From: a virus
Lineage: Duplodnaviria > Caudoviricetes
Virus record (IMG/VR): IMGVR_UViG_3300021255_003843
Span: 32,001 to 96,000 of that record
Reading direction: 5' to 3' (one strand)
Length of the DNA: 64,000 bases
Both the position numbers and the translations under genes were made by a program. Below are positions 1,966 through 63,913 of the stretch, in pieces (position 1 is the stretch's first letter; the number at the start of each line of letters is the position of its first letter). The notes below the pieces were generated by a model. The model was not told the origin of the DNA. It saw only the letters and a list, made by a program, of their open reading frames with translations, and made no database searches.

Positions 1966-2178
1966 TTATAAACCTAAAAGTATCCTTGCCGCTACAGCAA
2001 GTTCTGATTCTTCGGAGCTTTCTTCCTGCTCCGGTATTTCTGTTTCCGGTATCTCGTGCCAGTATTCAGGCTTGTCTAATTTAGCGAGCCATACTTCGGT
2101 AGAGTATGTCTGCCCGTCTGTCAGCACCATGCCTTCTTCAGCGATAAGATGTACCGGATCCTCATTGATAATGCGCAT
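1966..2178 (-). CDS. Small tail-associated hypothetical protein (ends ARILLGL)
   Basis: ATG after AAGGTG; acidic; C-terminus resembles 40774..40938. Confidence 0.65.
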   Translation of the reverse strand: MRIINEDPVHLIAEEGMVLTDGQTYSTEVWLAKLDKPEYWHEIPETEIPEQEESSEESELAVAARILLGL

Positions 2179-2188
2179 AGCTATCACC

Positions 2189-2281
2189 TTAAATTGTGTT
2201 CACGTCAGTGTCGAGCTCAGATAAAACAAGATCAAATGCGTAGGTGTCACCTCGCACCATGCTGATGTTTTCTTTGACCAA
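2189..2281 (-). pseudogene. 30-aa remnant of an RGDT-motif baseplate-type protein
   Basis: TTG...TAA reading MVKENISMVRGDTYAFDLVLSELDTDVNTI; looks like the start of a longer domain that stops abruptly. Confidence 0.35.
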
Positions 2282-2286
2282 TATTC

Positions 2287-3117
2287 TCACCCCGCATAAA
2301 TATCTTTGTATACATCGTTCAGTTTCGTCCACGTCTGTCTGCCAACAATGCCGTCAGCTTTCAGGCCGTAAGCTTTCTGAAACTTAACAACGGCATCTTT
2401 GGTCTTCTTGCCAAAGATGCCGTCCACACTGCCGCAATAGTAATCGACAGTATTCAGCATATTCTGTAAAGCCGCCACGTCTGTGCCGGTGCTGCCTTTT
2501 TTAATCGTCCTGCGTACAACAACGTCAGGATCGATATCAGGCTTTGCCGGTTGATAGCCTTGCTTCTCTAATTCTTCCGCTACTTCTTTGCGAAGCCGCG
2601 CCATCGTGTACTGCTCCCAAGCTGTACCTTTCTTCCCCCACCAATGATTCACATCAGCGTGGTTGCTGGCACATTTCATTCTGTGCAGCTCAGCATGACA
2701 ACGTATATTCTCAGGATCGATGCCGAACTTCTTGCACAGCTCTACGCAGAGCCAACGTACGCAGCAATACAGGTAGGCCGCTGCAACGTCGGTGTCTTTG
2801 CTTTTCGAAGGCTCGCAGATTTCAAACCCGACGCACCAATCGTTTGCGTTGCCTTTGCTTCCTTTGCCTGATAACCAGGGCCGCACATTCCAATCAAGGG
2901 TCTGCATAATGCCGTTCGTATCGATAATGGCGTTCGCACATTTCTCGATTGTGCTGTTGTTCCACCTGCGCCATCTGTCACGGTTCGTGCCCTTGCAGCC
3001 TACGCTGTGAACCTGAATGCCCGTCGGTGTCCTGCGCCTGTCCGCCTTGTAGCAACGGTTCTTTGTCATAAAGTATTCTTCTATAGGATATAACTCGTTT
3101 GGTTCAAAGTCTCCCAT
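2287..3117 (-). CDS. Endolysin: N-acetylmuramoyl-L-alanine amidase (Amidase_2-like) + C-terminal PG_binding_1 domain
   Basis: IQVHSVG, GFEICE, HAELH...NHAD Zn-amidase motifs; C-terminal GxDVxxLQ...DGIFGxxTxxAVxxFQ...DGIVGxxTW. Confidence 0.9.
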   Translation of the reverse strand: MGDFEPNELYPIEEYFMTKNRCYKADRRRTPTGIQVHSVGCKGTNRDRWRRWNNSTIEKCANAIIDTNGIMQTLDWNVRPWLSGKGSKGNANDWCVGFEICEPSKSKDTDVAAAYLYCCVRWLCVELCKKFGIDPENIRCHAELHRMKCASNHADVNHWWGKKGTAWEQYTMARLRKEVAEELEKQGYQPAKPDIDPDVVVRRTIKKGSTGTDVAALQNMLNTVDYYCGSVDGIFGKKTKDAVVKFQKAYGLKADGIVGRQTWTKLNDVYKDIYAG

Positions 3118-8694: not shown

Positions 8695-11600
8695 TCACTC
8701 CTCGGAAGTTAATTCGCAATCATATGTGGCACTATAATACACATCGAGTGTCGTTACGGTGATTGACTTCACACCATTATGATTGCTGTTCCAAATGTCA
8801 TCGGCCATACTGTCAGCCGATTTACGTTTCCATTGAAAACGTGACGCCGGTAAATCGGCTGTCACGTTTTGATTGCCGTGCCACACTCTGGCACTTAATG
8901 TAGTTGACGTCACATTAGAAGATAGAACATCAGATGTAGATATAATCTCTATCCTATAGCCGATCATATCATCTACGTCGTCTTTTGTTGCGTAATTCTG
9001 AGCATCGTCTTTTGTAACGAAGTGCTCCGTCTTCTCGACGGCGGCAATGATCTGATCGTCTGTAATAACAATAGAAGCAATCTTGTCGTTGATCTCGTCT
9101 TCGAGATTCTGCACGACAATGTTGATTGATTTGTTTGAAGATATATCAAGCTCTTCGCCGAAGCCGGGAGCAATGTGATTGGTAGTAATGGAGCCAGCTT
9201 CGATACGTTCAGCAGAAAGATAGCCTGTCGTGATCTCGTCGGCCGTGAATCCGTTGCCGTCGCCGAACGTACGCCAGGCCCAATCTCCCCACTCGTCTTT
9301 ACTCGACGCAATAGCAAATCCATTGCCCGTTAGCGTCATTGCGCTGTTGCCATCGGCAGACACGAATACCATGTTGCCTCGATCATCGGTGTACCATGTA
9401 GACGAGCCGCCTGTAATCAACAGTTTGTTTGCGTCGATCTTGCCTTCAAGCCTCTGCGCCGCGATTGCGCCTGTCTCTGTGATAGCGCTCGCTCGCTCAT
9501 ACAGACCCATACGGCCCTTCGCTTCGCTTGACACTTCCGCAATATGTGTCATTACGTCAGTGAAGCTATGCTGTGTAATCGTCGTCAAGTTTGTGTTGAT
9601 GGAGATTTTAGTTTTCCATGGCAGGTCATAACACTTCTGGATCTTGTCTACAAAAGCCCAACAGTTAATATTAATGTCAGGATCAACAAGGTGCGCCGCA
9701 CTTTGTGTAGAAATATCCGGCCACAAGATCTTGTATTGCTCGCCAGTGACACTATCCTCAAAGCCGTCCATGTTGCTGCCATACAGATCAACATAGTTGA
9801 TGTCATACTTCGCCTCAGGCTTCGACAGCTTTTCTAAATTATCTAAGGCATCGTCATACAGCTTCTGCTCGTCGCCGTCAACGTAATCATTCTTCTGCCA
9901 GTAGCCTTCACGATAAAGATCGCCAAGCTCTGTCTTCAGAGCGTTCTCTAATTCCTTTACGTCATCCTGCGCTGATTTGAGCGCGGGATAACATACGCCG
10001 TAAGCTTCGTCGGCGAGGTCTGCAAACTTCTTTGTCAGCGGCGTAATGCCTTTCAGCTCGCCGCTCGGTACAACGTTCTGCAAAACGACATACGTCTCAT
10101 CTTCTTTTGTGATGATCTTGTTCGCCACGTTCGGCGTCGAAATCGTCACAGCATCAGCAGTGATTACTCTGTCGCTGACGATACGTATATACTTCGTGCC
10201 GCCAACAACCAGATCACCGACCTCAGTCACATGTGTCTGTCCGTAGGGAGTGACGACGCTGCCACCCATTCCATATACTGTTTCATAACCAAGATACCTG
10301 CGCTCTTCGTCATAGTAGTAGACATCGAGATCGCCGTTGTATCCGTTGAAAACATACTCTGTATTCACGTATGCTCTGATAAAACCGGTACGGTGTTTAG
10401 CGTTGTCTTCAACATCGCCGCCGCTGCTCTTGTCGATTGTGCCAACTTCTTGAGCAGACATGCCGGCCAGAATGTTATCCGCATGATAGTTGACGTTATC
10501 GAAACGATACGCTTTCGTTTCGATAACGGTTTCAGCGTCTTTGACCTTCTGCGTGATTGTGCTGACGGTTGAATCATAGGTCAGTGTGTCGCCGGCATTC
10601 AACGTATCTTTTGTCGTGAACACCCAATAATTGCCGTAACCATTTTCAAAAGCGTAGTTACCGCTCGGTAATTCAGCGTCCGCAGTATAGGTATAGTTCT
10701 GATAGATACCTTTGATGTATTTATCTCTCGTCTGCCCGGCGGCATACACCGTACCAAACAGAGCAGACATGCGCTTGTCGGCCACAGTTTCCTTCTTGGC
10801 AGACCACGCGCCGCTCTCTTTGCGATACAGTAAAGATTTTTTCCAGTTGAACCAATAATCGCCAGGCGAATCCGCAGGATCCACGCTGTCTACGATGACA
10901 CGTTTCCATGCGGTATCGCCCTTGTCCGCCCAGCAGAAATAAAGTTCGGAAGGTGTCGTGTTGCCTTCGTACCACTTCCACCACCAGCCATAGCCGTTAA
11001 GCGACAGCGCAGAATGAGACGGTTCATCCTTCTCGTAGTACAGAGGATGTTTCACCGTCACTACTTTCACAGCTGTCTCGGCGGCTTGCTGCGTCGCCTC
11101 GTCAGCTGTTTCGTATGCGCCAAGCAAACCATTGACATTATGCTGTGCAAATAAATATACGCGATAAGGAACTGATTGTATATATTTACAATCATTAGAT
11201 GTCAGCCAGAGCGTCAGCACGCTCGGGTTCTCCTCATCGTCTATTTCTTTTAAGTAGGACTTTTCATACTTCAACGGTTCGCCGTTGTAAGGTTCATATA
11301 CAATATAAACAACCGATGCAATATCGTGCACCGGATCGCCATTGCCTTTTAATTCCGTGGCTACCCGCCACTTGAATTGTTTGTCTTCCTTCTTCGTGTA
11401 ATCTGTCCTGTACATGACACCTTTTGAGTAATCGTTCGTGTTCAGGTTCAGCTTTACATGCCCGTCCTGCTCTTTCACGATCGTGCAATCAAGCTTGCAG
11501 AAATCAACGGAGCCAATCGTCTCAGACAGCGATGTGATCGCGTTGGCAAACTCCGTCGCCTTTGTATTGACGATCTCCATATACTCCGGCGCTTTCATCT

Positions 11601-12792
11601 GGTAATTCGCGATGCGCTGCAACATGCCGTCTGTCAGCAGACCGATGTCGCGGTAGTAATGGAAGTCCATCAGAAAGGAGAACCAGTTCGTTACTTCTTT
11701 GCGCTGAGACTCGTCTTCTGTGAAGAAGGCTTCGCTTTGCGTTTTTTGCTGACTTTCGTACAGAAAATAGGCACGTTCGTTGGCCTCGTCCCAGACGTAC
11801 ATACGAGAAGCAGGGTCTAAATCGGACCAGACAACTTTAGATATTTTCTGCAGAGAATCTGAGCTATTTCCGAAGGTAAAATATCGTACAATATTGATGC
11901 CATTCTTGTCGGTCAGGTTGACCTGGCATTCGGTGCCAGGGTCAACCGCCTCACCAATGACGAGAGTGTACACGGTATGTGTGCACTCATCAATGCCGCA
12001 GTAGCCGTTTGTCTTGTCGCCATACGCGCCATAGGCGTACAGCTTCGTGATCATGTTCTCCTCATTCAGCGTGCGCGTAACGTTGCTGACGTTCGTGCCA
12101 TAGTGCAACTCGATTACACCTTCGTTCATAACGTCGGGCAGCGCACCATCCTCTGGTTGAGAGAACGGGTTCAGTGGCACAATGTCAACCGTCTTCGTGT
12201 CGCCGTTATAGATCGGTTTCGCCTCGAAGAGGTCACACATGTTCGCTATTAGCTTGAAGGCCCCGGTCTTTGCAGAGGCCTTCAAGCTACGATACTTAAC
12301 AGACGTTCCATCTTTCTCATAGAAAGTGTCTACGTGGCCGGGTGTCCAACCCGTACCTTCAAGAATCGTGTCGAGCAGCATCGCCGCCGTACCGACGTTG
12401 TTGCCTTCTTCGTCGGAGAATTCAAGCTCAAGACGTTTATGCTTCAACAGCTGGCTGACATGGCCCGCTGTAATGTTTAAGGTTTTCGTATAGTTGTTAT
12501 GCGTGATCTTAGACTCAGACAGGATGAACCAATCGGTCCCGTCATCGTCGATCATTCTCAGCTTATATCCTTCGCGGATATAGGGGATGCGGAAATTAGC
12601 TTCGTCGCCATCTTCGGTGTGGATCTGCTGCGGCAGAGAAAAAGAGATCTCTTTCCACCCGTTGCGCTCCGTCGTTTTTATGACGTCGTATGCCTGACCT
12701 GATACGTCAGATGTTTGGTCGTACAGTGAGCACTGCTTGTTACCTGAGTAATCAAATACATCAAGTACAAGGTTTCGTCTGTATTTGAGCAA
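8695..12792 (-). CDS. Baseplate hub / Tal-like tail spike protein
   Basis: Directly follows Dit; ILEGTGW, YGTNVSNVTR...ITKLYAYG, GFAIA...WAWRTFGDGNGFTADEITTGYL motifs. Confidence 0.8.
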   Translation of the reverse strand: MLKYRRNLVLDVFDYSGNKQCSLYDQTSDVSGQAYDVIKTTERNGWKEISFSLPQQIHTEDGDEANFRIPYIREGYKLRMIDDDGTDWFILSESKITHNNYTKTLNITAGHVSQLLKHKRLELEFSDEEGNNVGTAAMLLDTILEGTGWTPGHVDTFYEKDGTSVKYRSLKASAKTGAFKLIANMCDLFEAKPIYNGDTKTVDIVPLNPFSQPEDGALPDVMNEGVIELHYGTNVSNVTRTLNEENMITKLYAYGAYGDKTNGYCGIDECTHTVYTLVIGEAVDPGTECQVNLTDKNGINIVRYFTFGNSSDSLQKISKVVWSDLDPASRMYVWDEANERAYFLYESQQKTQSEAFFTEDESQRKEVTNWFSFLMDFHYYRDIGLLTDGMLQRIANYQMKAPEYMEIVNTKATEFANAITSLSETIGSVDFCKLDCTIVKEQDGHVKLNLNTNDYSKGVMYRTDYTKKEDKQFKWRVATELKGNGDPVHDIASVVYIVYEPYNGEPLKYEKSYLKEIDDEENPSVLTLWLTSNDCKYIQSVPYRVYLFAQHNVNGLLGAYETADEATQQAAETAVKVVTVKHPLYYEKDEPSHSALSLNGYGWWWKWYEGNTTPSELYFCWADKGDTAWKRVIVDSVDPADSPGDYWFNWKKSLLYRKESGAWSAKKETVADKRMSALFGTVYAAGQTRDKYIKGIYQNYTYTADAELPSGNYAFENGYGNYWVFTTKDTLNAGDTLTYDSTVSTITQKVKDAETVIETKAYRFDNVNYHADNILAGMSAQEVGTIDKSSGGDVEDNAKHRTGFIRAYVNTEYVFNGYNGDLDVYYYDEERRYLGYETVYGMGGSVVTPYGQTHVTEVGDLVVGGTKYIRIVSDRVITADAVTISTPNVANKIITKEDETYVVLQNVVPSGELKGITPLTKKFADLADEAYGVCYPALKSAQDDVKELENALKTELGDLYREGYWQKNDYVDGDEQKLYDDALDNLEKLSKPEAKYDINYVDLYGSNMDGFEDSVTGEQYKILWPDISTQSAAHLVDPDININCWAFVDKIQKCYDLPWKTKISINTNLTTITQHSFTDVMTHIAEVSSEAKGRMGLYERASAITETGAIAAQRLEGKIDANKLLITGGSSTWYTDDRGNMVFVSADGNSAMTLTGNGFAIASSKDEWGDWAWRTFGDGNGFTADEITTGYLSAERIEAGSITTNHIAPGFGEELDISSNKSINIVVQNLEDEINDKIASIVITDDQIIAAVEKTEHFVTKDDAQNYATKDDVDDMIGYRIEIISTSDVLSSNVTSTTLSARVWHGNQNVTADLPASRFQWKRKSADSMADDIWNSNHNGVKSITVTTLDVYYSATYDCELTSEE

Positions 12793-12814
12793 AGGTGCTC
12801 ACTTCCTTTCTGTC

Positions 12815-13906
12815 TTATGCAAATGTAGGTTTATATAAAATATCGAGCTTCGTCAGATTGATAGTGCCGCCATTAGGATAAGCGCTGACATACAGCTCGT
12901 TCATTTTCAATATCTGCGCTTTGCCGTTCTTCTCATCGGTCACAGTTTTATTGATGCCAGCAGTGCTGTCGTCGGTCACGTTCACGATCTTCGCGCTCGT
13001 TCCGTCGGCGAAGTACACATACCGGTTGACCATGTCGTAATTAAACTTGCCGTCGCTCTTGAGCGTTTTACCATCTTCGCCGATCGTAATGTCGATGTTG
13101 CGGTAAGCTGGATAGCCGGGCTCAAGCTCGATGAATCCGTAATCGTGATACAGGAAGCCAGGGCTCGACACCGTGCCGTTTGTCAGGATTGTCTGCCCGT
13201 TCAGGCTATCGCACTGCACATAATGATTGTTCGCACAAACCTCTGGCGTAATTGCAACGAAGCGGCAGTTCTGTCCCGTTGTACGGTTAGAGATCATTAA
13301 GCCAGTGCCAACGTCGCCGGCAATCCGCACGGCGATCTTGGCGCGCTCAGTACCGGGGTTGTACAGCAGCAGCTCTTTGTTCTCGGTGATCGGCTCGCTT
13401 GCGGAAGCAAACGATGTTGTCATGTCGATTGTACCTTCAGGCAGCAAAGCAGAGTTCGCCAGCAGGCTTGCTTCGTCTTCGCAGCCATCAGGGATAGACA
13501 TATAGTCCGTTCTCGCGTAGGGGTAGTAGGCCCGTAATGAGATCGAGACGATGCCGTTCTGGTAGTTCGTCATCTGCCCGACATCAACGCCGGTCACTGT
13601 CGCCACGTACCAGCACCAGGGACGCTTCTTGAACACAAGCCGCCCTGTTGCGTTGCGGCGGAAGACACTGTAAATCCTAGTGAGCACGCCGTTGAGCACA
13701 TGTTGATCCTCATAAAAGCAGCGAAGAACAAAGTCCTTGGGTTGCAGTGTGCTACCGTAGTAATAGCCGCCGTCGTGACCGTCGAAAACTTGCTCATGCG
13801 GTTTATGCGTAGCAGGCTTATACACGTAGGTGTTGCTCAGGTCCGGCGCATATTCAAGCTCAAGATCTGCAATGTCGATCCCGTTAAAGGTGAATCCTCC
13901 AGTCAT
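12815..13906 (-). CDS. Distal tail protein (Dit)
   Basis: MTGGFTFNG...G.DG.YY...F...G.LVF...AYYPYA; follows TMP; RBS GAAGGAGG supports ATG at 13906. Confidence 0.8.
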   Translation of the reverse strand: MTGGFTFNGIDIADLELEYAPDLSNTYVYKPATHKPHEQVFDGHDGGYYYGSTLQPKDFVLRCFYEDQHVLNGVLTRIYSVFRRNATGRLVFKKRPWCWYVATVTGVDVGQMTNYQNGIVSISLRAYYPYARTDYMSIPDGCEDEASLLANSALLPEGTIDMTTSFASASEPITENKELLLYNPGTERAKIAVRIAGDVGTGLMISNRTTGQNCRFVAITPEVCANNHYVQCDSLNGQTILTNGTVSSPGFLYHDYGFIELEPGYPAYRNIDITIGEDGKTLKSDGKFNYDMVNRYVYFADGTSAKIVNVTDDSTAGINKTVTDEKNGKAQILKMNELYVSAYPNGGTINLTKLDILYKPTFA

Positions 13907-53571: not shown

Positions 53572-53826
53572 ATGGAAGAAGAGTTCAAAGAAGGAGATCT
53601 TGTCGTCATCAAACAGAGCAAACATTGCTTAGTTGAAGACATCAGACAAGAACATCGCAAAGCATTTGAGATTCTTTGCGCGACGCCGCACGCAGTGAGA
53701 GATTATAAGAAATCATCAAATCTACTTTATGTTCCGGTTCTGGAAGGCAATGCCACAATTGTCTTGAGTCCGGAATGGTTTGAGCACGCTGACGATCCCA
53801 TCGAGAACAATCCTGACCTGTACTGA
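53572..53826 (+). CDS. SH3/KOW-like paralog 1
   Basis: FKEGDLVVIK...WFE...DLY. Confidence 0.75.
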   Translation: MEEEFKEGDLVVIKQSKHCLVEDIRQEHRKAFEILCATPHAVRDYKKSSNLLYVPVLEGNATIVLSPEWFEHADDPIENNPDLY

Positions 53827-53861
53827 CGCCACTTCCCCGCTCCGCCGTTACGCAGACGGGG

Positions 53862-53892
53862 GCGGCCTGAGGACAGGCCGCGCCAGGATGAA
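53862..53892 (+). promoter_or_regulatory. AGGA-loop hairpin motif, copy 4
   Basis: GCGGCCTG-AGGA-CAGGCCGC-GCCAGGATGAA. Confidence 0.7.
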
Positions 53893-53948
53893 GGGTTTGA
53901 CGCCCTTCGGAAATAACAAACGTGCGGCAGAGCCGCGAGGAGGAAATT

Positions 53949-54137
53949 ATGGAGCGTGAATATTTCTTTAACCAGAGCAAAGCTTTTGATCCGACCGCCG
54001 GCTGCGCCCTGAACCGCATCGAAGCGGAGCAGAAAAGAAAAAGGAATAAGGAAGCCTGGCTCGAGATCGCCCGCAAGATGTGTTCTAAGCCTCAGCATCT
54101 CTTTGTTCCGGTAGGTGAACTGGTTGTGAAAGCCTGA
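53949..54137 (+). CDS. Hypothetical small protein
   Basis: GAGGAGG RBS; DPTAG.A...I motif. Confidence 0.65.
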   Translation: MEREYFFNQSKAFDPTAGCALNRIEAEQKRKRNKEAWLEIARKMCSKPQHLFVPVGELVVKA

Positions 54138-54175
54138 TCCCGCCGGGAAAAGAAGCTTGACTTCAGCAACGAAAG

Positions 54176-54206
54176 GCGGCCTGAGGACAGGCCGCGCCAG
54201 GGTGAA
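54176..54206 (+). promoter_or_regulatory. AGGA-loop hairpin motif, copy 5
   Basis: GCGGCCTG-AGGA-CAGGCCGC-GCCAGGGTGAA. Confidence 0.7.
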
Positions 54207-54381
54207 GGGTTATACGGCCCTTGCCCGACGAATCGCAAAACAAAAGCGATTCGTCGCAAAATCAAGACTCGTTACGCGCTGCAGACAAATGCTCCGGCGC
54301 GAAACGATATATTTTGATGCGAAAAGCATCCGACAAAATGGCAGACGCCAAACGCCCACAGGGCAGAAAGAGAGAGAGAGT

Positions 54382-54801
54382 ATGAATAAGCTGTTTATCA
54401 TGGGTCACCTCACCGCCGACGCTACCGTCCGCACCGTCAATGTCGCTGGCGTTCCTACGCCTGTTGCCACCTTCACCGTCGCTGCCAACTATGGACGCCG
54501 CAACGAGAATGGTGACCGCAACGTCCAGTTCGTGCGCTGCACCGCGTGGCGTGAATTCGCCAGCAAGCTCGCGCCGTACCTGAAGAAGGGCACCCAGGTG
54601 GCCGTCGAAGGTCCGTGCCGCGTCTCCGTGTACCAGAGCAACCAGGACCGCACCTGGCGTGGTCAGCTCGAGATCCCGACGATCGAGAGCTTCGAGTTCC
54701 TGAGCGCCCAGAAGAGGGACGAAGCGGCTGAACCCGCAGAAGCGCCCGCTCCTGAGACGCCCGCTGCTCCCGCCGCCGATGACGGCTACCCCTTCGATTA
54801 A
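54382..54801 (+). CDS. ssb: Single-stranded DNA-binding protein
   Basis: MNKLFIMGHLT.D...F.VA.N...F..C.AW...YLKKG.QVAVEG; tail DDGYPFD. Confidence 0.92.
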   Translation: MNKLFIMGHLTADATVRTVNVAGVPTPVATFTVAANYGRRNENGDRNVQFVRCTAWREFASKLAPYLKKGTQVAVEGPCRVSVYQSNQDRTWRGQLEIPTIESFEFLSAQKRDEAAEPAEAPAPETPAAPAADDGYPFD

Positions 54802-54818
54802 TGAAAAGAGGAATCTGA

Positions 54819-54923
54819 ATGGATCCGTATTCTGAGTTCTGTACTGTCGAAGACGCGCTGGACTGGTTCACCGGCGAAGCGCTCTTCGAGCTTCACGAAT
54901 TCGAGGAATCCGAAAACGAATAA
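54819..54923 (+). CDS. 34-aa acidic peptide
   Basis: AAGAGGA RBS; MDPYSEFCTVEDALDWFTGEALFELHEFEESENE; followed by a terminator. Confidence 0.5.
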   Translation: MDPYSEFCTVEDALDWFTGEALFELHEFEESENE

Positions 54924-55080
54924 GGCGGGCTTGTCCCGCCTTTTTATGCAGCGCAGCCCGTCAATGTCGGACAAGCTGTACTTCCAAGAATAAGTGGTTG
55001 AAACCGACCATATTGATAGTTGCCAGGTCAAGTAACTGTTCAATGGGGACAAGCCACTTCATGGGACAACTCCTCCGCGC

Positions 55081-55123
55081 GCCGAGACGCCCTCCTCCTC
55101 CTGGGGCGTCTCGGCTTATTTTT
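55081..55123 (+). terminator. Terminator with C-rich loop
   Basis: GCCGAGACGCCC-TCCTCCTCCTG-GGGCGTCTCGGC-TTATTTTT. Confidence 0.7.
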
Positions 55124-55198
55124 CGTCAGCGAAGTCTTTTGAAGGCCGCCGTCTGGCCCGGACCGCAATAACTTGTATTATCGAATCGGAGGCGGAAG

Positions 55199-55489
55199 AT
55201 GACTGAACAGGCGCGTGGTTTCAAAGAAGGCGATCTGGTTGTTGTAAAGCCAGAATATGCAGATGTGATGTACGAAGCATACAAACACCTCATATTGTAC
55301 GGTACGCCTAAGTCTAAGCTTGGTAAAAACATTGCTCTCGGAGAACCCGCTATCGTTCTTCGCGTTTGGGATGACGAAATGTGGATAACCGACAAAGATG
55401 ACAGAACGGGAGAATTCATTGCACCTCTAACGCAATGGTTTACGTTTTATAAAAATAAAGCAATGGATGCAATTGATCATCTCCTGTAG
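55199..55489 (+). CDS. SH3/KOW-like paralog 2
   Basis: FKEGDLVVVKPEY...WF...IDHLL. Confidence 0.8.
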   Translation: MTEQARGFKEGDLVVVKPEYADVMYEAYKHLILYGTPKSKLGKNIALGEPAIVLRVWDDEMWITDKDDRTGEFIAPLTQWFTFYKNKAMDAIDHLL

Positions 55490-55499
55490 GAGGATTAAA

Positions 55500-55781
55500 A
55501 TGAGTAGTTTTGAAATTGGCGACATCGTAGTCGTCAAGCCAGAATATGCCTCATCCTTCAGAAACATATACGAAGGGCATGAGAGTTTGTTCAATAGACA
55601 TAAAGTTCGCTTCGGAATCAGCGTTTCGGAAGGCGCACCAGCGCGTGTCGTGCATACCACTTATGACGGCATCGACCTGACCGATCTCGACAATACACTC
55701 AGCCCCAACTCCTGGCTCTGCACCGAGAGAGAATGGTTTGAGCTCTATCAAGAGCGAGGACCGATCGAGCAGCTCTTGTGA
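55500..55781 (+). CDS. SH3/KOW-like paralog 3
   Basis: FEIGDIVVVKPEY...WFELY...IEQLL. Confidence 0.8.
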   Translation: MSSFEIGDIVVVKPEYASSFRNIYEGHESLFNRHKVRFGISVSEGAPARVVHTTYDGIDLTDLDNTLSPNSWLCTEREWFELYQERGPIEQLL

Positions 55782-55788
55782 GGTAACT

Positions 55789-56112
55789 ATGGATTATTTT
55801 CACGTTGGAGATATCGTCGTAGTAAAGCCTGAATATAGCGAAGAGCTGATAAGAAGCTATTCGTCTGGCTACAGCGACGCAAAATGCAAATTTGGTCGCG
55901 CTGTTGCGCGTGGCGCTCCAGCCAAGGTCGTCCACTGTCACAAAAGCGAAATTGTCAAAGTGTCAGACTACACGAAAGAGTATCTAACTTTTGGTGGCAG
56001 CAGCGGATGGCTAACAGATCTTGAGGAAACGCTGCAATGCGAGGATTATTTGCACCTAAGCAGCGCCTACTTTGACCTTTATATGCCTCCGATACCTGAT
56101 GGTCTGCTGTAG
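55789..56112 (+). CDS. SH3/KOW-like paralog 4
   Basis: FHVGDIVVVKPEY...YFDLY...DGLL. Confidence 0.8.
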   Translation: MDYFHVGDIVVVKPEYSEELIRSYSSGYSDAKCKFGRAVARGAPAKVVHCHKSEIVKVSDYTKEYLTFGGSSGWLTDLEETLQCEDYLHLSSAYFDLYMPPIPDGLL

Positions 56113-56122
56113 GAGTTTTATA

Positions 56123-56365
56123 ATGTGTTATGTGCATGAAATAGAAACGTTTCACGAAGGTGAAATCGTCGAAATGACAGACCATGTGAAAAAGTTACCA
56201 CGACTAAAAGAAGCCCGTATTTTACAGGATGACAAATTCCTAATAAAAGATGTAGGCGTAAACGGTATTTTAAAAATACAGAATATAAGAAACAACGAAG
56301 ATTACTATGTCAAAAACATTTCATTGCAGCACATAGTTCCTGAAGTTGAAACATGTCTTCTGTAG
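56123..56365 (+). CDS. SH3/KOW-like paralog 5
   Basis: FHEGEIVEM...ETCLL. Confidence 0.7.
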   Translation: MCYVHEIETFHEGEIVEMTDHVKKLPRLKEARILQDDKFLIKDVGVNGILKIQNIRNNEDYYVKNISLQHIVPEVETCLL

Positions 56366-56678
56366 GAGCGCCCATGCCAACATCAGTGTATCAGCCGGAC
56401 CAGTTTGTCGTCGCGCTGCTGTAATTATTGCGTGCCCCTTTGATCATCACCCGTGCAAATCGGGCAGGGGCTATACTCAACCTCCTTTCTGGACGCTGGC
56501 AAGCCGTCCAATGAAGCTTGCCAACAGGTTTGCGGTACTCGCCTGCCCTAATATAAAAAACCGTTGTGAGTAGACAGTCATGGCAGTGTGTCTGCAAGTC
56601 CCGGGAGTCCTCCAAGTGCAGGTAAATGCATAGCCTCGAACTCCCGGGGCGGACGTTCTATTTTGAAAGGAGACGCTC

Positions 56679-57134
56679 ATGCTGAGATTTGTCAAAGGTG
56701 ATTTGCTTGAAGCAAAAGAAGATTTCATCTGCCATCAGGTCAACTGCATGAGCGCAATGGGCTCAGGCATTGCTAACCAGATCGCGGACAAATGGCCTCA
56801 AGTAAAAACACTGTATTTATCAAAATGCCAGATGTTTGATGACAGAAGACTTCTGTTGGGCAAAGTTCAGTCTATAAAAATCGATGAACATCAATACGTA
56901 CTGAATATTTTCAGCCAGTATACTTATGGCAGCGACAAAAATACGGTCTATACAAACTATCCAGCTTTGCAGAAAGCGTTGTATCTGGCTCGTTTGCCTG
57001 ATAAAAGCTATGCTTTTCCGTACCACTTTGGATGCGGCTTAGCGAACGGCGACTGGACAACTGTTCGTTCGCTAATTGAGAAAATACTGGCCTATGACCA
57101 CGAAGTTGTTATTTACAAGAGGTACGCCACATGA
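56679..57134 (+). CDS. Macrodomain protein (Poa1p/TARG1-like ADP-ribose hydrolase family)
   Basis: KGDLL...ICHQVNC...MGSGIA..I...P...N.FSQ...T.Y...FP..FGCGLANGDW. Confidence 0.88.
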   Translation: MLRFVKGDLLEAKEDFICHQVNCMSAMGSGIANQIADKWPQVKTLYLSKCQMFDDRRLLLGKVQSIKIDEHQYVLNIFSQYTYGSDKNTVYTNYPALQKALYLARLPDKSYAFPYHFGCGLANGDWTTVRSLIEKILAYDHEVVIYKRYAT

Positions 57135-57400
57135 AAGGAAACGCTAAGCTATACAAACCAGGCGACGAAGTGTTCGTCTCCGACGATATTATGTATATGA
57201 ATACCAGTGACGGCGTAGGCATTGCAGAAGCGATGAAAACAATGGCCGGCCAACGTCTGACAATCAAAGCTATTTCCGATGGATATCCGAAGTGTGGCTT
57301 GTGTTATATCGTAAAAGAAAATACTTTCTTATGGCAGGATGAAATGTTGGAGCCCATTAGCAACATTGACATGACCGCCATGGACAGCCTGCTTTTATGA
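57131..57400 (+). CDS. SH3/KOW-like paralog 6
   Basis: YKPGDEVFV...MAG..LTI...WQDEMLEP...DSLLL. Confidence 0.8.
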   Translation: MKGNAKLYKPGDEVFVSDDIMYMNTSDGVGIAEAMKTMAGQRLTIKAISDGYPKCGLCYIVKENTFLWQDEMLEPISNIDMTAMDSLLL

Positions 57401-57410
57401 GGTAATAACT

Positions 57411-57692
57411 ATGTTTCAAGAAGGAGATCTCGTCGTAGCGAAAAACCCGGCAAGAATGCGAGAAACATATAAAGATTGGGCCAAACGATACCCGGATGAA
57501 CGCATCAAGTATGAACTCGGGCTGAAATTTGCTGACGGTGCGCCTCTTGAAATTATCAGGATGAGAGGAGCCACCGGCGTAGTTCTCGGCCCAGTTGGTT
57601 CGTCATGCACAGACAACGACAAAACGCTCTGGCTCAACTCAGGCGATCTTGCGCTTTGCGACGACATGCAGCCTGTGTCTGATTTATTGTGA
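57411..57692 (+). CDS. SH3/KOW-like paralog 7
   Basis: FQEGDLVVAK...VSDLL. Confidence 0.8.
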   Translation: MFQEGDLVVAKNPARMRETYKDWAKRYPDERIKYELGLKFADGAPLEIIRMRGATGVVLGPVGSSCTDNDKTLWLNSGDLALCDDMQPVSDLL

Positions 57693-57699
57693 GGTAGCT

Positions 57700-57909
57700 A
57701 TGTTTCGAGTAGGCGATATAGCAATAGCCAATGAACGCGCCAAAGGCGTTTATTCAATAACCAAGCCAGGCTGGATCGGCACAGTTATCAGGGTTTATCC
57801 TGGTTTCATTACAGTAGCCGGAAAAGAAGGCAATTTCACTGTATGTTCGGAACACTTCGATCTTTATAAGGATCCTCTTGATATCAAAGACATCTCGCGG
57901 TTGATATGA
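57700..57909 (+). CDS. SH3/KOW-like paralog 8
   Basis: FRVGDIAIAN..A...Y.IT..GW.G.V...HFDLY...SRLI. Confidence 0.8.
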   Translation: MFRVGDIAIANERAKGVYSITKPGWIGTVIRVYPGFITVAGKEGNFTVCSEHFDLYKDPLDIKDISRLI

Positions 57910-57917
57910 CCGCATAT

Positions 57918-57990
57918 GGCCTCTTAGCTCAGCCGGTAGAGCAGCTGACTGTTAATCAGCCGGTCGCGCGTTCAAATCGCGCAGAGGCCT
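57918..57990 (+). tRNA. tRNA-Asn(GUU)
   Basis: Acceptor GGCCTCT/AGAGGCC, D arm GCTC/GAGC, anticodon arm GCTGA-CT GTT AA-TCAGC, T loop TTCAAAT; no encoded CCA. Confidence 0.92.
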
Positions 57991-58162
57991 CGTCGGGACG
58001 ATCTGCCGGAAAATGGCGCAGATCACGCGCAACGCTGTTGGAACAGAAGGCTTGGGTTGCGCAACTTGTCAGCAAAAGAAATATCTATAGTTTTTAGCCA
58101 TTTCCATGCCTTGCTTACAGCTGACAGCCCTGCCGCTGGGGTCATAATACAGCGGATTTTAT

Positions 58163-58355
58163 GGAGACTTAGCTCAACTGGGAGAGCGCCAGCGTTGCTC
58201 AGCGTAGGTCAGATGTATAGTCAGGAACTGACCAAAGCGTTTCGGCTCGGCAATATAACTCACCCCGTGATATTAAACGTTGCCATATTTTGTTGAGGAC
58301 AGAATAAGCGGATGCACGCAAGAGGTCGGCGATTCGAACCCGCCAGTCTCCACCA
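58163..58355 (+). ncRNA. tRNA-Ala(UGC)-derived RNA with 117-nt structured insertion at the anticodon
   Basis: Acceptor GGAGACT/AGTCTCC-ACCA, D arm and T loop intact; removing 58199..58315 gives exactly 76 nt with a TGC anticodon. Confidence 0.8.
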
Positions 58356-58454
58356 GGTGCTGCCTTACAGGGGGCAGTATGCCGGAGTCATGACCGGCAC
58401 TTCTGTACGTCGTTTTGGCACCGGTTTGGGCGCTATAATCTAACTGGTGCACGT

Positions 58455-58528
58455 GGGGATTTAGCTCATCAGGTCAGAGCAGCGCTCTTATAAAGCGCAG
58501 GTGCATGGTTCAAGTCCATGAATCCCTA
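58455..58528 (+). tRNA. tRNA-Ile(UAU)
   Basis: GGGGATT/AATCCCT acceptor, GCGCT-CT TAT AA-AGCGC anticodon arm, CATGG-TTCAAGT-CCATG T arm, A73. Confidence 0.9.
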
Positions 58529-58601
58529 TTTGCCCGTGACCATGGAAACACGGGCAAGACGCATCGCCTCTTTAAAATATAGCCGGCGTGTCCGGCTATA
58601 T

Positions 58602-58673
58602 AGGGGAGTAGCCAAACGGAAAGGCACGGGACTTTGACTCCCGCATGTGAAGGTTCAACTCCTTCCTCCCCTG
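58602..58673 (+). tRNA. tRNA-Gln(UUG)
   Basis: AGGGGAG/CTCCCCT acceptor, CGGGA-CT TTG AC-TCCCG, GAAGG-TTCAACT-CCTTC, G73. Confidence 0.92.
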
Positions 58674-58694
58674 CTACGAAATCAAGGAGCTTAT

Positions 58695-58943
58695 ATGGCG
58701 TGTAAATTCAAACCCGGCGACGTGATCGTCGGCAACGATCTCGCTGACGAACGTTACTTTATCACTAACAAAGGCTGGATCGGTCAGGTCATTTCTGTAA
58801 GCCGGGACTGCTTTAGCGCAAAAACGCTTTACAAAAGCGGCAAGCTTGGCACACTTTTTCCTGCCCTTGGTTACGAATACTTTAACGTGCTCGAACCAGA
58901 ATTCGACGCCAAGCATATTAAACAGATGGCAATGATATTATAG
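58695..58943 (+). CDS. SH3/KOW-like paralog 9
   Basis: FKPGDVIVGN..A...Y.IT.KGWIG.V...YF...AMIL. Confidence 0.8.
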   Translation: MACKFKPGDVIVGNDLADERYFITNKGWIGQVISVSRDCFSAKTLYKSGKLGTLFPALGYEYFNVLEPEFDAKHIKQMAMIL

Positions 58944-58953
58944 GAGCGACCGT

Positions 58954-59196
58954 ATGCTGTCACAAACAAAATTTCAGATAGGCGATTATGTGATCGGCAC
59001 AAAGGAAGCTACCGCGCACTATGCGATCACAAAAGAGGGCTGGACCGGTCAGATAACGGAAATACGGAAATATACTATCATGGTGTACGGCAAAGACAAC
59101 TGTGACCGTGACAGATGGTTCGAAGTAGAGCCTAAATATTTTGAATCATGTGATTCGCAAAATTTCAATCAGAACGAGTTTCAGCAGATATTGTAG
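58954..59196 (+). CDS. SH3/KOW-like paralog 10
   Basis: FQIGDYVIGT..A...Y.IT..GW.G.I...YFE...QQIL. Confidence 0.8.
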   Translation: MLSQTKFQIGDYVIGTKEATAHYAITKEGWTGQITEIRKYTIMVYGKDNCDRDRWFEVEPKYFESCDSQNFNQNEFQQIL

Positions 59197-59205
59197 GGAG
59201 AAACC

Positions 59206-59442
59206 ATGGATCGCAACACTCGATATAAAGTAGGCGACATCGTGCGGTGCTATCGGAAGTTTATTGATGTTCCGGAAGAAACGCTGTTCGAAATTGTCCA
59301 AGTAAACGCCTATTCTTATTATACTACATATCTCATCACGCCGGCCACGATGGATGGCAAGCGTTATTATGTTCGCGCGGAAAGTATTCGCAAGGCGAGC
59401 GTGAACGATTTTGACAAGCGGAAAATTAAAACTCTGCTGTAA
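59206..59442 (+). CDS. SH3/KOW-like paralog 11
   Basis: YKVGDIVRC...KTLL. Confidence 0.8.
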   Translation: MDRNTRYKVGDIVRCYRKFIDVPEETLFEIVQVNAYSYYTTYLITPATMDGKRYYVRAESIRKASVNDFDKRKIKTLL

Positions 59443-59451
59443 GGAGACAAC

Positions 59452-59784
59452 ATGTTTAGTCCATTGAATTATTCGCCGGAAGATCTGTTCGATGACGAAA
59501 ACAAAGACGGCCTCGACAGCGAGCGCTTTGTCGTCGGCGACAGTGTATACATTCATCCGGACCTGCGCGAAACCGACAAGGGTGCGTCCGTGACGGAAGA
59601 TATGCTCAACTATGCCGGTTCGCTTGCCAGAATCGTGAGAGTGCTGGGCAACTCGTATAAGCTCGATGTTGATGATGCAGACTGGGTCTGGGATGATTAC
59701 TGTCTTCTGAGTCAGAATGAGTTCGCGCAATATATTACTGGCGTTGCCAAGGTAGAAATCAAACGGCTGGAGGGCTTGATATGA
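59452..59784 (+). CDS. SH3/KOW-like paralog 12
   Basis: FVVGDSVYIHPDL...M..YAG...Y.LD....W.DYCL...EGLI. Confidence 0.8.
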   Translation: MFSPLNYSPEDLFDDENKDGLDSERFVVGDSVYIHPDLRETDKGASVTEDMLNYAGSLARIVRVLGNSYKLDVDDADWVWDDYCLLSQNEFAQYITGVAKVEIKRLEGLI

Positions 59785-60086
59785 GCTACGATATCTTCGA
59801 CATTCACAACGAAGAGGGCATATGCGCCAAATTGTTCGATGTTGGTGATAAAGTAATCATCCGTTCTGACATCAGACCGACCAATAAACACCCGACGATC
59901 ACATCGCAAATGGCGGCCTTGGCAGGCAAAGAAGGTACCGTTGTCCGTAAAAACGGTGACGCTTCTTATCTTCTTGATATTTCAGGAGGCGAATACGGCT
60001 ACGTCTGGTGCGATTACTGTTTCGAGCCTCCGGACACAGGCGCTGCTAATTCACAAATAACCGAGTCTATGCCGGTTCTGCTGTAA
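59781..60086 (+). CDS. SH3/KOW-like paralog 13
   Basis: FDVGDKVIIRSDI...M..LAG...Y.LD...W.DYCFEP...PVLL. Confidence 0.8.
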   Translation: MSYDIFDIHNEEGICAKLFDVGDKVIIRSDIRPTNKHPTITSQMAALAGKEGTVVRKNGDASYLLDISGGEYGYVWCDYCFEPPDTGAANSQITESMPVLL

Positions 60087-63241: not shown

Positions 63242-63913
63242 ATGGATCTTTCTAAATCCTATGAATTCTTCCAGCCTTCCATGTGCGACGGCCGCATCCA
63301 CATCATCGGATGCGGCTCCGTCGGCTCTACAGTGGCGGAACTGCTGGTTCGCTACGGCCTGACCAATATCACGCTCTATGATTTTGATCATGTCGAGGCT
63401 CACAACATCGCTAATCAGATGTTCGATAGTACCGACATCGGCAAGGAAAAGGTCACAGCCGTGGCCGATCATCTGATCGCTATCAATCCGGAGCTGCGGG
63501 ACACTCTGCGCATCGCCGATAAGGGCTATACAAATCAGAAGCTCTCCGGCTATGTATTCCTGTGTGTCGACAATATCGACCTTCGACGCAAGATCGCCGA
63601 GGAAAACAGGAACAATGTATTTATCAAGGCGATGTTCGATTTCAGGACCCGCCTGACCGACGCCCAGCACTACGCTGCGGATTGGTCTGACGAAAAGCAC
63701 AAGGAAGCCTTCATCAATTCTATGCAATTCTCGCACGAGGAGGCGTCCAAGGAGACGCCTATGTCCGCCTGCCATGTCACCCTCAGTGTGGCGGCGACAG
63801 TGCGCCTGATCTGCACCTACGGGGTCGTCAACTTCATTGACTTCCTCAAGAAAGGGACCCTCAAGAAGACCGTACTCATCAACACAGAGCTCTGGGACTT
63901 GATGGGTATCTAA
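63242..63913 (+). CDS. ThiF/E1-like adenylyltransferase
   Basis: IIGCGSVGS, DFDHVEAHNIANQ, GKEKV.A, CVDN...R; candidate catalytic Cys in SACH. Confidence 0.92.
   Translation: MDLSKSYEFFQPSMCDGRIHIIGCGSVGSTVAELLVRYGLTNITLYDFDHVEAHNIANQMFDSTDIGKEKVTAVADHLIAINPELRDTLRIADKGYTNQKLSGYVFLCVDNIDLRRKIAEENRNNVFIKAMFDFRTRLTDAQHYAADWSDEKHKEAFINSMQFSHEEASKETPMSACHVTLSVAATVRLICTYGVVNFIDFLKKGTLKKTVLINTELWDLMGI

Follow-up and report, generated by a model that had tools for sequence, protein, structure and literature searches.

Can a phage gene that carries 117 additional nucleotides (nt) in the anticodon loop of an alanine tRNA still give rise to a tRNA, and if not, what is it? The question is raised by a 193-nt element, here called X, at positions 58163-58355 (+) of a 64,000-nt stretch of phage DNA. 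This stretch, referred to as the window, corresponds to bases 32001-96000 of a 105,495-bp IMG/VR phage record (IMGVR_UViG_3300021255_003843, ~95% complete), whose genes include those for terminase, portal and tail. We found that X is derived from a tRNA-Ala(UGC) gene and no longer makes a normal decoding tRNA. Our favoured explanation, held with a confidence that falls somewhat short of even, is that X is a transcribed relic: a single, one-off insertion of 117 bp would have struck a tRNA-Ala cassette and left behind a pseudo-tRNA that would continue to be transcribed.

Contigs carrying the phage and its relatives were taken from ENA, Logan and JGI assemblies, and relatives were found via the large terminase (58-73% identity). 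G000 designates the window's own phage genome, and labels of the forms G0xx and L0xx designate other phage records and contigs.

Anatomy of a split alanine tRNA gene

The element consists of two tRNA parts and the insert between them.

58163-58355 (+), X, a 193-nt gene derived from tRNA-Ala(UGC), its anticodon loop interrupted by an insert and its ACCA encoded
58163-58198 (+), 5' tRNA part of X: acceptor strand with A3, D arm, 5' strand of the anticodon stem and the first TGC
58199-58315 (+), 117-nt orphan insert, boundary ambiguous by 3 nt
58316-58355 (+), 3' tRNA part of X: A37, C38, 3' strand of the anticodon stem, variable loop, T arm, acceptor strand and ACCA

From 5' to 3', X reads GGAGACT, TA, the D arm, G, CCAGC-GT-TGC, the 117 nt, (TGC)-AC-GCAAG, AGGTC, the T arm and AGTCTCC-ACCA. 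The acceptor stem GGAGACT/AGTCTCC is paired at 7/7 positions and is followed by ACCA, the stem of the D arm (GCTC-AACTGGGA-GAGC) is paired at 4/4, and the T arm is GGCGA-TTCGAAC-CCGCC. An initial annotation, made from the sequence alone, had described the acceptor stem, D arm, T loop and ACCA as intact, and we agree; it had not mentioned that the window copy is mismatched in the T stem, at A53.C61. The insert lies in the anticodon loop between CCAGC-GT-TGC and TGC-AC-GCAAG, and converts the loop into a 134-nt arm. Removal of 58199-58315 leaves 76 nt, as had been stated. Since the TGC is repeated, the boundary is ambiguous by 3 nt, and the registers from 58196-58312 to 58198-58314 are equally good, giving four in total.

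The identity and anticodon-stem defects noted in the initial annotation were also confirmed. X has A3-U70 instead of G3:U70 in both of its known lineages, and in both the anticodon stem keeps 3/5 pairs, with mismatches C28.A42 and A29.A41. G3:U70 is reportedly the main determinant of alanyl-tRNA synthetase, following work from 1988 by Hou and Schimmel and by McClain and Foss, and it is kept in three independent phage tRNA-Ala genes (L040/G005, G006 and G004). With A3-U70, therefore, even a spliced product of X should not accept alanine. The excised form thus fails what is expected of a normal tRNA-Ala with respect to G3:U70 and a 5-bp anticodon stem, and in the window lineage also with respect to G53:C61, a pair near-universal in tRNAs. 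With the 134-nt arm in the anticodon loop in addition, X no longer makes a normal decoding tRNA, and the earlier dismissal of an ordinary alanine tRNA was correct. X was not called by ARAGORN with or without the intron option, and did not match RF00005 at the gathering score or at E<=10, while the three neighbouring tRNAs score 64-70 bits. ARAGORN called the 76-nt excised product as tRNA-Ala(tgc); the window copy required a threshold relaxed slightly, and default settings sufficed for a variant carried by contig L043 (see below). No other tRNA-Ala was found in the phage genome.

Group I introns occur in tRNA anticodon loops of this phage family. The tRNA-Sup(tta) gene of G008 contains one of 272 nt (RF00028, 41 bits, E 1e-7), which served as a positive control, and the insert of X occupies the same anticodon-loop site in a phage tRNA cluster. 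Nevertheless, it is very improbable that the insert splices or cleaves itself as a ribozyme, be it a group I intron, a remnant of one or a small nucleolytic ribozyme. It has no detectable catalytic core; a search of 901 nt (57850-58750) gave no Rfam family on X at E<=10, neither RF00028 nor a ribozyme family. The four registers give the ends U/A, U/U, G/G and C/C, none with U(-1) and a terminal G, and the insert does not resemble the G008 intron in sequence. Moreover, 117 nt is about half the length of the smallest tRNA group I introns.

The RNAs found among the tRNA genes of G008 (L031:312-671 (-), 2104-2669 (-) and 2861-2964 (-)) are the split tRNA-Sup(tta), a full ROOL (RF03087, 278 bits) and a sub-threshold 'cow-rumen-3'. 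tRNAs with a CTA anticodon (amber suppressor, 'Pyl') were called by ARAGORN in G002, G004 and G008, a hint that some members of the phage family may recode stop codons. The phage likely originates from the rumen, as SHIW14 scaffold names are taken to mean sheep rumen and a relative carries the ROOL RNA and the weak 'cow-rumen-3' match.

The Ala-like scaffold and an open frame of 27 codons inside the insert (58213-58296) would be compatible with a miniature molecule resembling transfer-messenger RNA (tmRNA). We consider the chance of this negligible. The ARAGORN tmRNA search was negative and no tmRNA family matched; X lacks the G3:U70 needed for alanylation, has a complete D stem, and shows neither pseudoknots nor a tag ending of the ...LAA type. 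The missing Rfam match, the missing U/G register and the full D stem bear out the earlier view that the insert is neither a group I intron nor a tmRNA. Of the changes in the L043 variant that fall in the 27-codon frame, judged by eye, one is non-synonymous and one synonymous. This ATG frame and a 79-aa TTG frame (58057-58296) were both judged to be chance coding frames, because they overlap the promoter and the 5' half of the tRNA and were not called by gene callers in five contigs.

Distribution of X and fold of the insert

The halves of X are homologous to intact tRNA-Ala genes of related phages, so the likeness is not due to chance. The clusters of G005 and L040 have the order Asn-Tyr-Ala-Gln-Ile and include an ordinary 76-nt tRNA-Ala(TGC) that aligns with both halves (3' half against G005: E 2.8e-6). 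The exons of X are 79% identical to these genes, and the acceptor stem is the same throughout except at position 3. X was found with 100% identity in contigs of at least three other samples (ENA ERZ12302814, ENA ERZ28612963 and JGI 3300002641, the last of which ends at 58317), which excludes an assembly artefact. The phage also occurs in SRR873595 and SRR873598. The 117-nt insert in a tRNA-Ala scaffold is thus real.

On the other hand, X was absent from the relatives G001-G010, L037, L040 and L042. When X was compared by blast with ten related phage records, matches were confined to the tRNA halves, and the insert did not match its own genome or six complete relatives in sensitive blastn and nhmmer searches. 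Blast searches of phage and plasmid collections with X and the insert returned only chance-level or tRNA-flank matches. Exact and degenerate patterns covering X, its junctions, the insert and the promoter gave 0 matches in viral, metagenome and genome collections, from which the nearest relatives are perhaps missing, so that this does not prove absence; the generic pattern of a tRNA-Ala with a 104-134-nt insert likewise gave 0 matches in these collections, with the same reservation. A scan of seven phage genomes for tRNA ends separated by a long middle recovered X in the window phage only and no second tRNA with this insert. Among the contigs L034-L042, which were reached via protein homologues of a 469-aa neighbour, X was present only in the identical phage. 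By these comparisons the insert is an orphan specific to one lineage. The initial annotation had named two observations that together would speak for a mere pseudo-tRNA, a lack of expression and an insert structure not conserved in relatives. As to the latter, the insert is absent altogether from the eleven related phages examined; as to the former, the good promoter immediately before X speaks for its transcription. A transposon footprint, considered on the basis of the TGC direct repeat and a weak terminal inverted similarity (TCAGCGTA versus TCCGCTTA), was rejected as too short and ambiguous.

The predicted fold of the insert contains the following elements.

58192-58203 with 58308-58319 (+), closing helix, irregular, which prolongs the anticodon stem into the insert (predicted pair probabilities 0.64-0.98)
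58207-58233 (+), hairpin H1: GGUCAG, a 15-nt loop and CUGACC (pair probability ~0.58; z -1.1, not distinctive)
58249-58284 (+), hairpin H2: GGCAAU...GUUGCC enclosing the stems UAA/UUA and UCAC/GUGA, with AUAUUUUGUU directly after it (z -2.3)
58286-58306 (+), hairpin H3: a 9-bp A/U-rich stem with a GAG loop (z -6.4, for a segment chosen after the fact)

Pair probabilities were 0.94-1.0 for GGCAAU/GUUGCC with UCAC/GUGA in H2, and 0.87-1.0 for the stem UAUUUUGUU/GACAGAAUA. The hairpins named in the initial annotation therefore do exist in the predicted ensemble. What did not hold is the notion of a distinctive multi-hairpin domain. The z-score of the whole X fold was -1.64, with 13/200 dinucleotide shuffles equally stable, and that of the 134-nt arm alone was -1.38, with 20/200. 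The predicted fold of X and of its arm is no more stable than that of shuffled sequence and is unusual only in hairpins picked afterwards. A T loop, an acceptor-like 7-bp stem, CCA and a tRNA match are all lacking in the insert, which is not tRNA-shaped. In 58249-58306, AUAUUUUGUU directly after H2 doubles as the 5' strand of H3, a weak terminator/anti-terminator-like layout.

The only variant of X was found in contig L043 (JGI sample 3300041748), which is 95% identical to the window over 1.3 kb. X differs at 4/193 positions (2.1%), all by transitions, with two in the insert and none in the 5' tRNA part. In the insert, 58244 G>A falls in a junction, and 58275 A>G turns a predicted U-A pair of H2 into U.G. 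In the 3' part, 58332 A>G (G53) and 58336 G>A (A57) both give the residues of the relatives' intact tRNA-Ala. As L043 and the relatives share G53, the change G53>A, which breaks the T stem, is derived in the window lineage.

Probable promoter sharing and exchange of tRNA cassettes

X lies second in a cluster with the order Asn, X, Ile, Gln, and the features around it are as follows.

57918-57991 (+), tRNA-Asn(GTT), upstream neighbour of X (ARAGORN, Rfam)
58121-58148 (+), predicted sigma-70-like promoter: CTGACA, 16 nt, CATAAT (10/12), ending 14 nt before X
58356-58453 (+), spacer between X and tRNA-Ile, with TATAAT at 58434-58439
58454-58529 (+), tRNA-Ile(TAT), downstream neighbour of X (ARAGORN, Rfam)
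58602-58674 (+), tRNA-Gln(TTG) (ARAGORN, Rfam)

The promoter before X was the sole promoter-like site detected in 57600-58900, and a terminator scan found nothing on the + strand. The position of the sigma-70-like promoter, 14 nt before X, makes transcription of X probable; X would then head an X-Ile-Gln precursor.

In L042, a distant relative, tRNA-Asn, the 171-nt spacer and the promoter are ~94% identical to those of the window, but the promoter leads straight into tRNA-Ile, X and the following 98-nt spacer being missing; L037 shares with L042 and the window phage the order Asn-Ile-Gln, without X. The 98-nt spacer between X and tRNA-Ile is in turn 96% identical to the Tyr-Ala spacer of L040 and G005, a match that extends 14 nt into the next tRNA. 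The promoter-bearing spacers thus swap partners: one precedes X in the window (57992-58162) and tRNA-Ile in L042 (4206-4374), and the other precedes tRNA-Ile in the window (58356-58453) and tRNA-Ala in L040 (3536-3649). The breakpoints lie within the shared tRNA 5' motif GGRGAYTTAGCTCA. As the same spacers stand before different tRNAs, the tRNA genes act as cassettes that recombine at similar 5' ends, and with the tRNA content of the relatives in flux, decaying copies are to be expected.

These results led us to favour the relic explanation. The ancestor of X would have been an exchangeable tRNA-Ala(UGC) cassette like the intact copy in related phages. Only in this lineage would unrelated DNA of 117 bp have entered the anticodon loop, at a TGC microhomology; G3:U70 would have become A3-U70, two anticodon-stem pairs would have been lost, and decoding would have ended. 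Its place between a promoter and useful tRNAs would keep X transcribed; the promoter behind which it sits would also serve tRNA-Ile and tRNA-Gln, giving the X-Ile-Gln precursor, from which the host tRNA end-processing enzymes may trim X to a tRNA-like RNA of ~193 nt. This RNA would be a tolerated by-product and not a selected device. We thus infer that X is transcribed and processed and lacks a function. In favour of the relic explanation, which is the most economical one, the insert is an orphan, hallmarks of a tRNA are lost, the predicted fold is unexceptional, and X is not called by ARAGORN or RF00005. In L043, where 12/98 spacer positions differ, the second TATAAT before tRNA-Ile is lost, so conservation of the promoter before X would be explicable by the need for tRNA-Ile and tRNA-Gln alone. 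X resembles tRNA pseudogenes in being tRNA-derived, missed by detectors, deprived of identity and anticodon-stem features, and lineage-specific. It differs from them in keeping a strong predicted promoter, a perfect acceptor stem, an encoded CCA and the first place in a tRNA operon, and to judge from these features X is very likely still expressed.

The same stretch of the locus could be read as regulatory. The insert might be a cis-acting leader or attenuator for tRNA-Ile and tRNA-Gln, in which H2 and AUAUUUUGUU terminate transcription and the alternative H3 allows passage. The overlap of the U-rich tract after H2 with H3 would suit such a device, as would the loss of the second TATAAT in L043, where tRNA-Ile and tRNA-Gln would need read-through from the promoter before X. 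However, H2 is weak (-7.2 kcal/mol) and its stem long and interrupted, the + strand terminator scan was empty, no sensor or ligand is suggested, no homologues were found, and L042 manages without the insert. We regard an attenuator as having only a slim chance of being correct.

In the window, the tRNA cluster lies inside a run of small paralogous genes (53572-60086) encoding proteins of 69-110 aa whose N-termini are of the (F/Y)xxGD type and which end in a hydrophobic dipeptide. The 82-aa paralogue beside tRNA-Gln had no homologue beyond its own 90% cluster in a collection of 5.8 billion protein clusters, and the 469-aa neighbour had no relatives in the viral contig collection.

Possible alternatives: functional RNA or spliced intron

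Several points weigh against a mere relic. Phages rarely keep useless DNA. Within contig L043, X diverges far less (4/193) than third codon positions (19/235, ~8%) or the two downstream spacers (12% and 32%), and one of the two changes in the insert keeps a predicted pair. The top half of X is fully intact in L043, with 7/7 acceptor pairs, the D stem, G18 G19, the T arm and ACCA. Damage limited to the anticodon stem and the identity pair would also suit an RNA selected for processing and never for charging. Finally, functional tRNA look-alikes do exist in this phage family, as evidenced by a conserved 103-nt tRNA-like gene in G001 (98114-98216; L026:1115-1217 (-)) and G006 (1877-1979; L027:878-980 (-)). 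The two copies score 38 and 36 bits with RF00005, and 48 nt folded in two hairpins replace 17 anticodon-arm positions. Between them, ACTG/CAGT is changed to ACCG/CGGT, a compensatory change, and TCTC/GGGA to TCCC/GGGA (U.G to C-G). As three positions of the 9-nt loop in the first hairpin differ between the copies, the gene may not decode.

In light of these points, it is possible, although we hold it to be doubtful, that the arm is either a selected RNA domain on a tRNA chassis, a spare tRNA-Ala cassette having become a stable, uncharged look-alike that acts in trans, or a protein-dependent intron of a novel type, being neither a ribozyme nor tRNA-shaped. Both proposals had been made in the initial annotation, and both lost ground, as the insert is lineage-specific and without homologue, its fold is unexceptional as an RNA domain, and relatives have a plain tRNA-Ala or nothing at this position.

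The former would make X a functional tRNA-scaffolded non-coding RNA whose 134-nt arm serves as a nuclease decoy, a binding platform or a sponge, with A3-U70 blocking charging. RNase P, 3' trimming and the CCA end would give it the processing and stability of a tRNA. The intact acceptor, D and T architecture, the strong promoter, the restriction of damage to decoding and identity elements, and the low divergence of X within L043 with one pair-preserving change can all be cited in its favour. Precedents are the 103-nt gene and RNAC and RNAD of T4, two small RNAs of unexplained role made from the tRNA region of that phage (PMC3014915). Like X, the T4 RNAs are non-tRNA RNAs among phage tRNA genes, presumably subject to the same processing. 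Unlike X, they are not tRNA genes with an insert, and no sequence relation is expected.

On the contrary side, X is confined to a single lineage with one variant, its insert has no homologue in the collections searched, the fold z-scores are not significant, and the window lineage gained the T-stem-breaking G53>A. The apparent conservation may in addition reflect a recombination block of low divergence. Contig L048, from the same sample as L043, shows 1 difference across 57411-58142; with the upstream region near-identical, the 2/117 changes in the insert are not low locally. Where they overlap, L048 and L043 differ from each other at 58118, and the comparison is a mosaic with a change-point near 58332, so that it allows no safe inference on selection. 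Taken together, we consider a functional RNA of this kind possible but rather doubtful.

As for roles in trans, a look-alike may serve to decoy a defence nuclease directed at tRNAs, or may cooperate with the Rnl5-like ligase of the phage or with its retron-type reverse transcriptase. The latter (396 aa; PADLOC RT_II-A, 150 bits) is encoded 5.6 kb downstream of X, following a ThiF/E1-like gene, and is followed by a protein of ~900 aa with faint to weak matches to PF05183 (RdRP/YonO-like polymerase); this group of genes lies at window 63242-63913 and just past the window end (L034:8956-10146, 10349-13192). This gene order is common to L037, L038, L040 and L042. We rejected a specific link between X and the reverse transcriptase, which is conserved in relatives without X.

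The intron proposal supposes that the insert is a non-self-splicing, 'enigmatic' intron, excised by nucleases, with the halves joined by the Rnl5-like ligase into a 76-nt tRNA in which the exons would read ...CCAGCGTTGC joined to ACGCAAG.... Lak megaphages harbour 'enigmatic introns' in tRNA genes, among them a ~93-nt, Rfam-negative insert in the anticodon loop of a tRNA-Tyr (Devoto et al. 2019, Nat Microbiol, PMC6784885, Table S6). The inserts of Lak and of X are alike as putative introns of ~90-120 nt in the anticodon loop of a phage tRNA, without Rfam match and too short for group I, and X matches the class of short non-ribozyme inserts at this site. They differ in that inserts of the Lak phages are found repeatedly, in several tRNAs and in different cohorts, with at least one being tRNA-shaped, whereas the insert of X is confined to a single lineage and is not tRNA-shaped. 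Also, once the insert was taken out, a tRNA type and an anticodon could be assigned to the Lak exons (with eukaryote settings), while the exons of X have lost G3:U70 and two anticodon-stem pairs.

In support of splicing, the window phage has no other tRNA-Ala, in-silico excision of the L043 variant gives a tRNA-Ala(tgc) by ARAGORN, and the phage encodes an RNA ligase (PHA02142 OB domain and PF09414; G000:9597-10724, L085:919-2046), which lies outside the window, 1.2 kb upstream of its other tRNA cluster (Leu-TAA, Thr-TGT and Trp-CCA; G000:11883-12472). However, this ligase is present in G003 and G005, both without X, and is missing from G001, G002 and G008, and therefore does not track X. The product would have no G3:U70 and 3/5 anticodon-stem pairs, with no visible selection for a working tRNA. 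Lacking a T loop, an acceptor-like 7-bp stem and CCA, the insert is not suited to excision by tRNA end-trimming enzymes, and among the seven phage genomes it recurs in no other tRNA. With regard to the archaeal type of tRNA splicing, the junction strands and predicted folds of X contained no bulge-helix-bulge (3-nt bulge, 4-bp helix, 3-nt bulge), and EndA (PF01974) was not found in the phage genome by a search that matched 4/4 archaeal control genomes; RtcB was not found in the phage either. We therefore consider a protein-dependent intron unlikely.

X was wholly overlooked by standard tRNA finders, a point of relevance for annotation. If X is functional or spliced, it would add another design to the unexplained short inserts in phage anticodon loops, one that is large, not tRNA-shaped and placed on an unchargeable scaffold, and with its 193 nt and its own promoter it would be a tractable case for studying how bacteria and phages handle such RNAs. 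If X is a relic, as we favour, it would provide a snapshot of the turnover of phage tRNA arrays, in which cassettes are swapped at conserved 5' ends, promoters are re-used, and a copy that has been hit lingers by virtue of a shared promoter.

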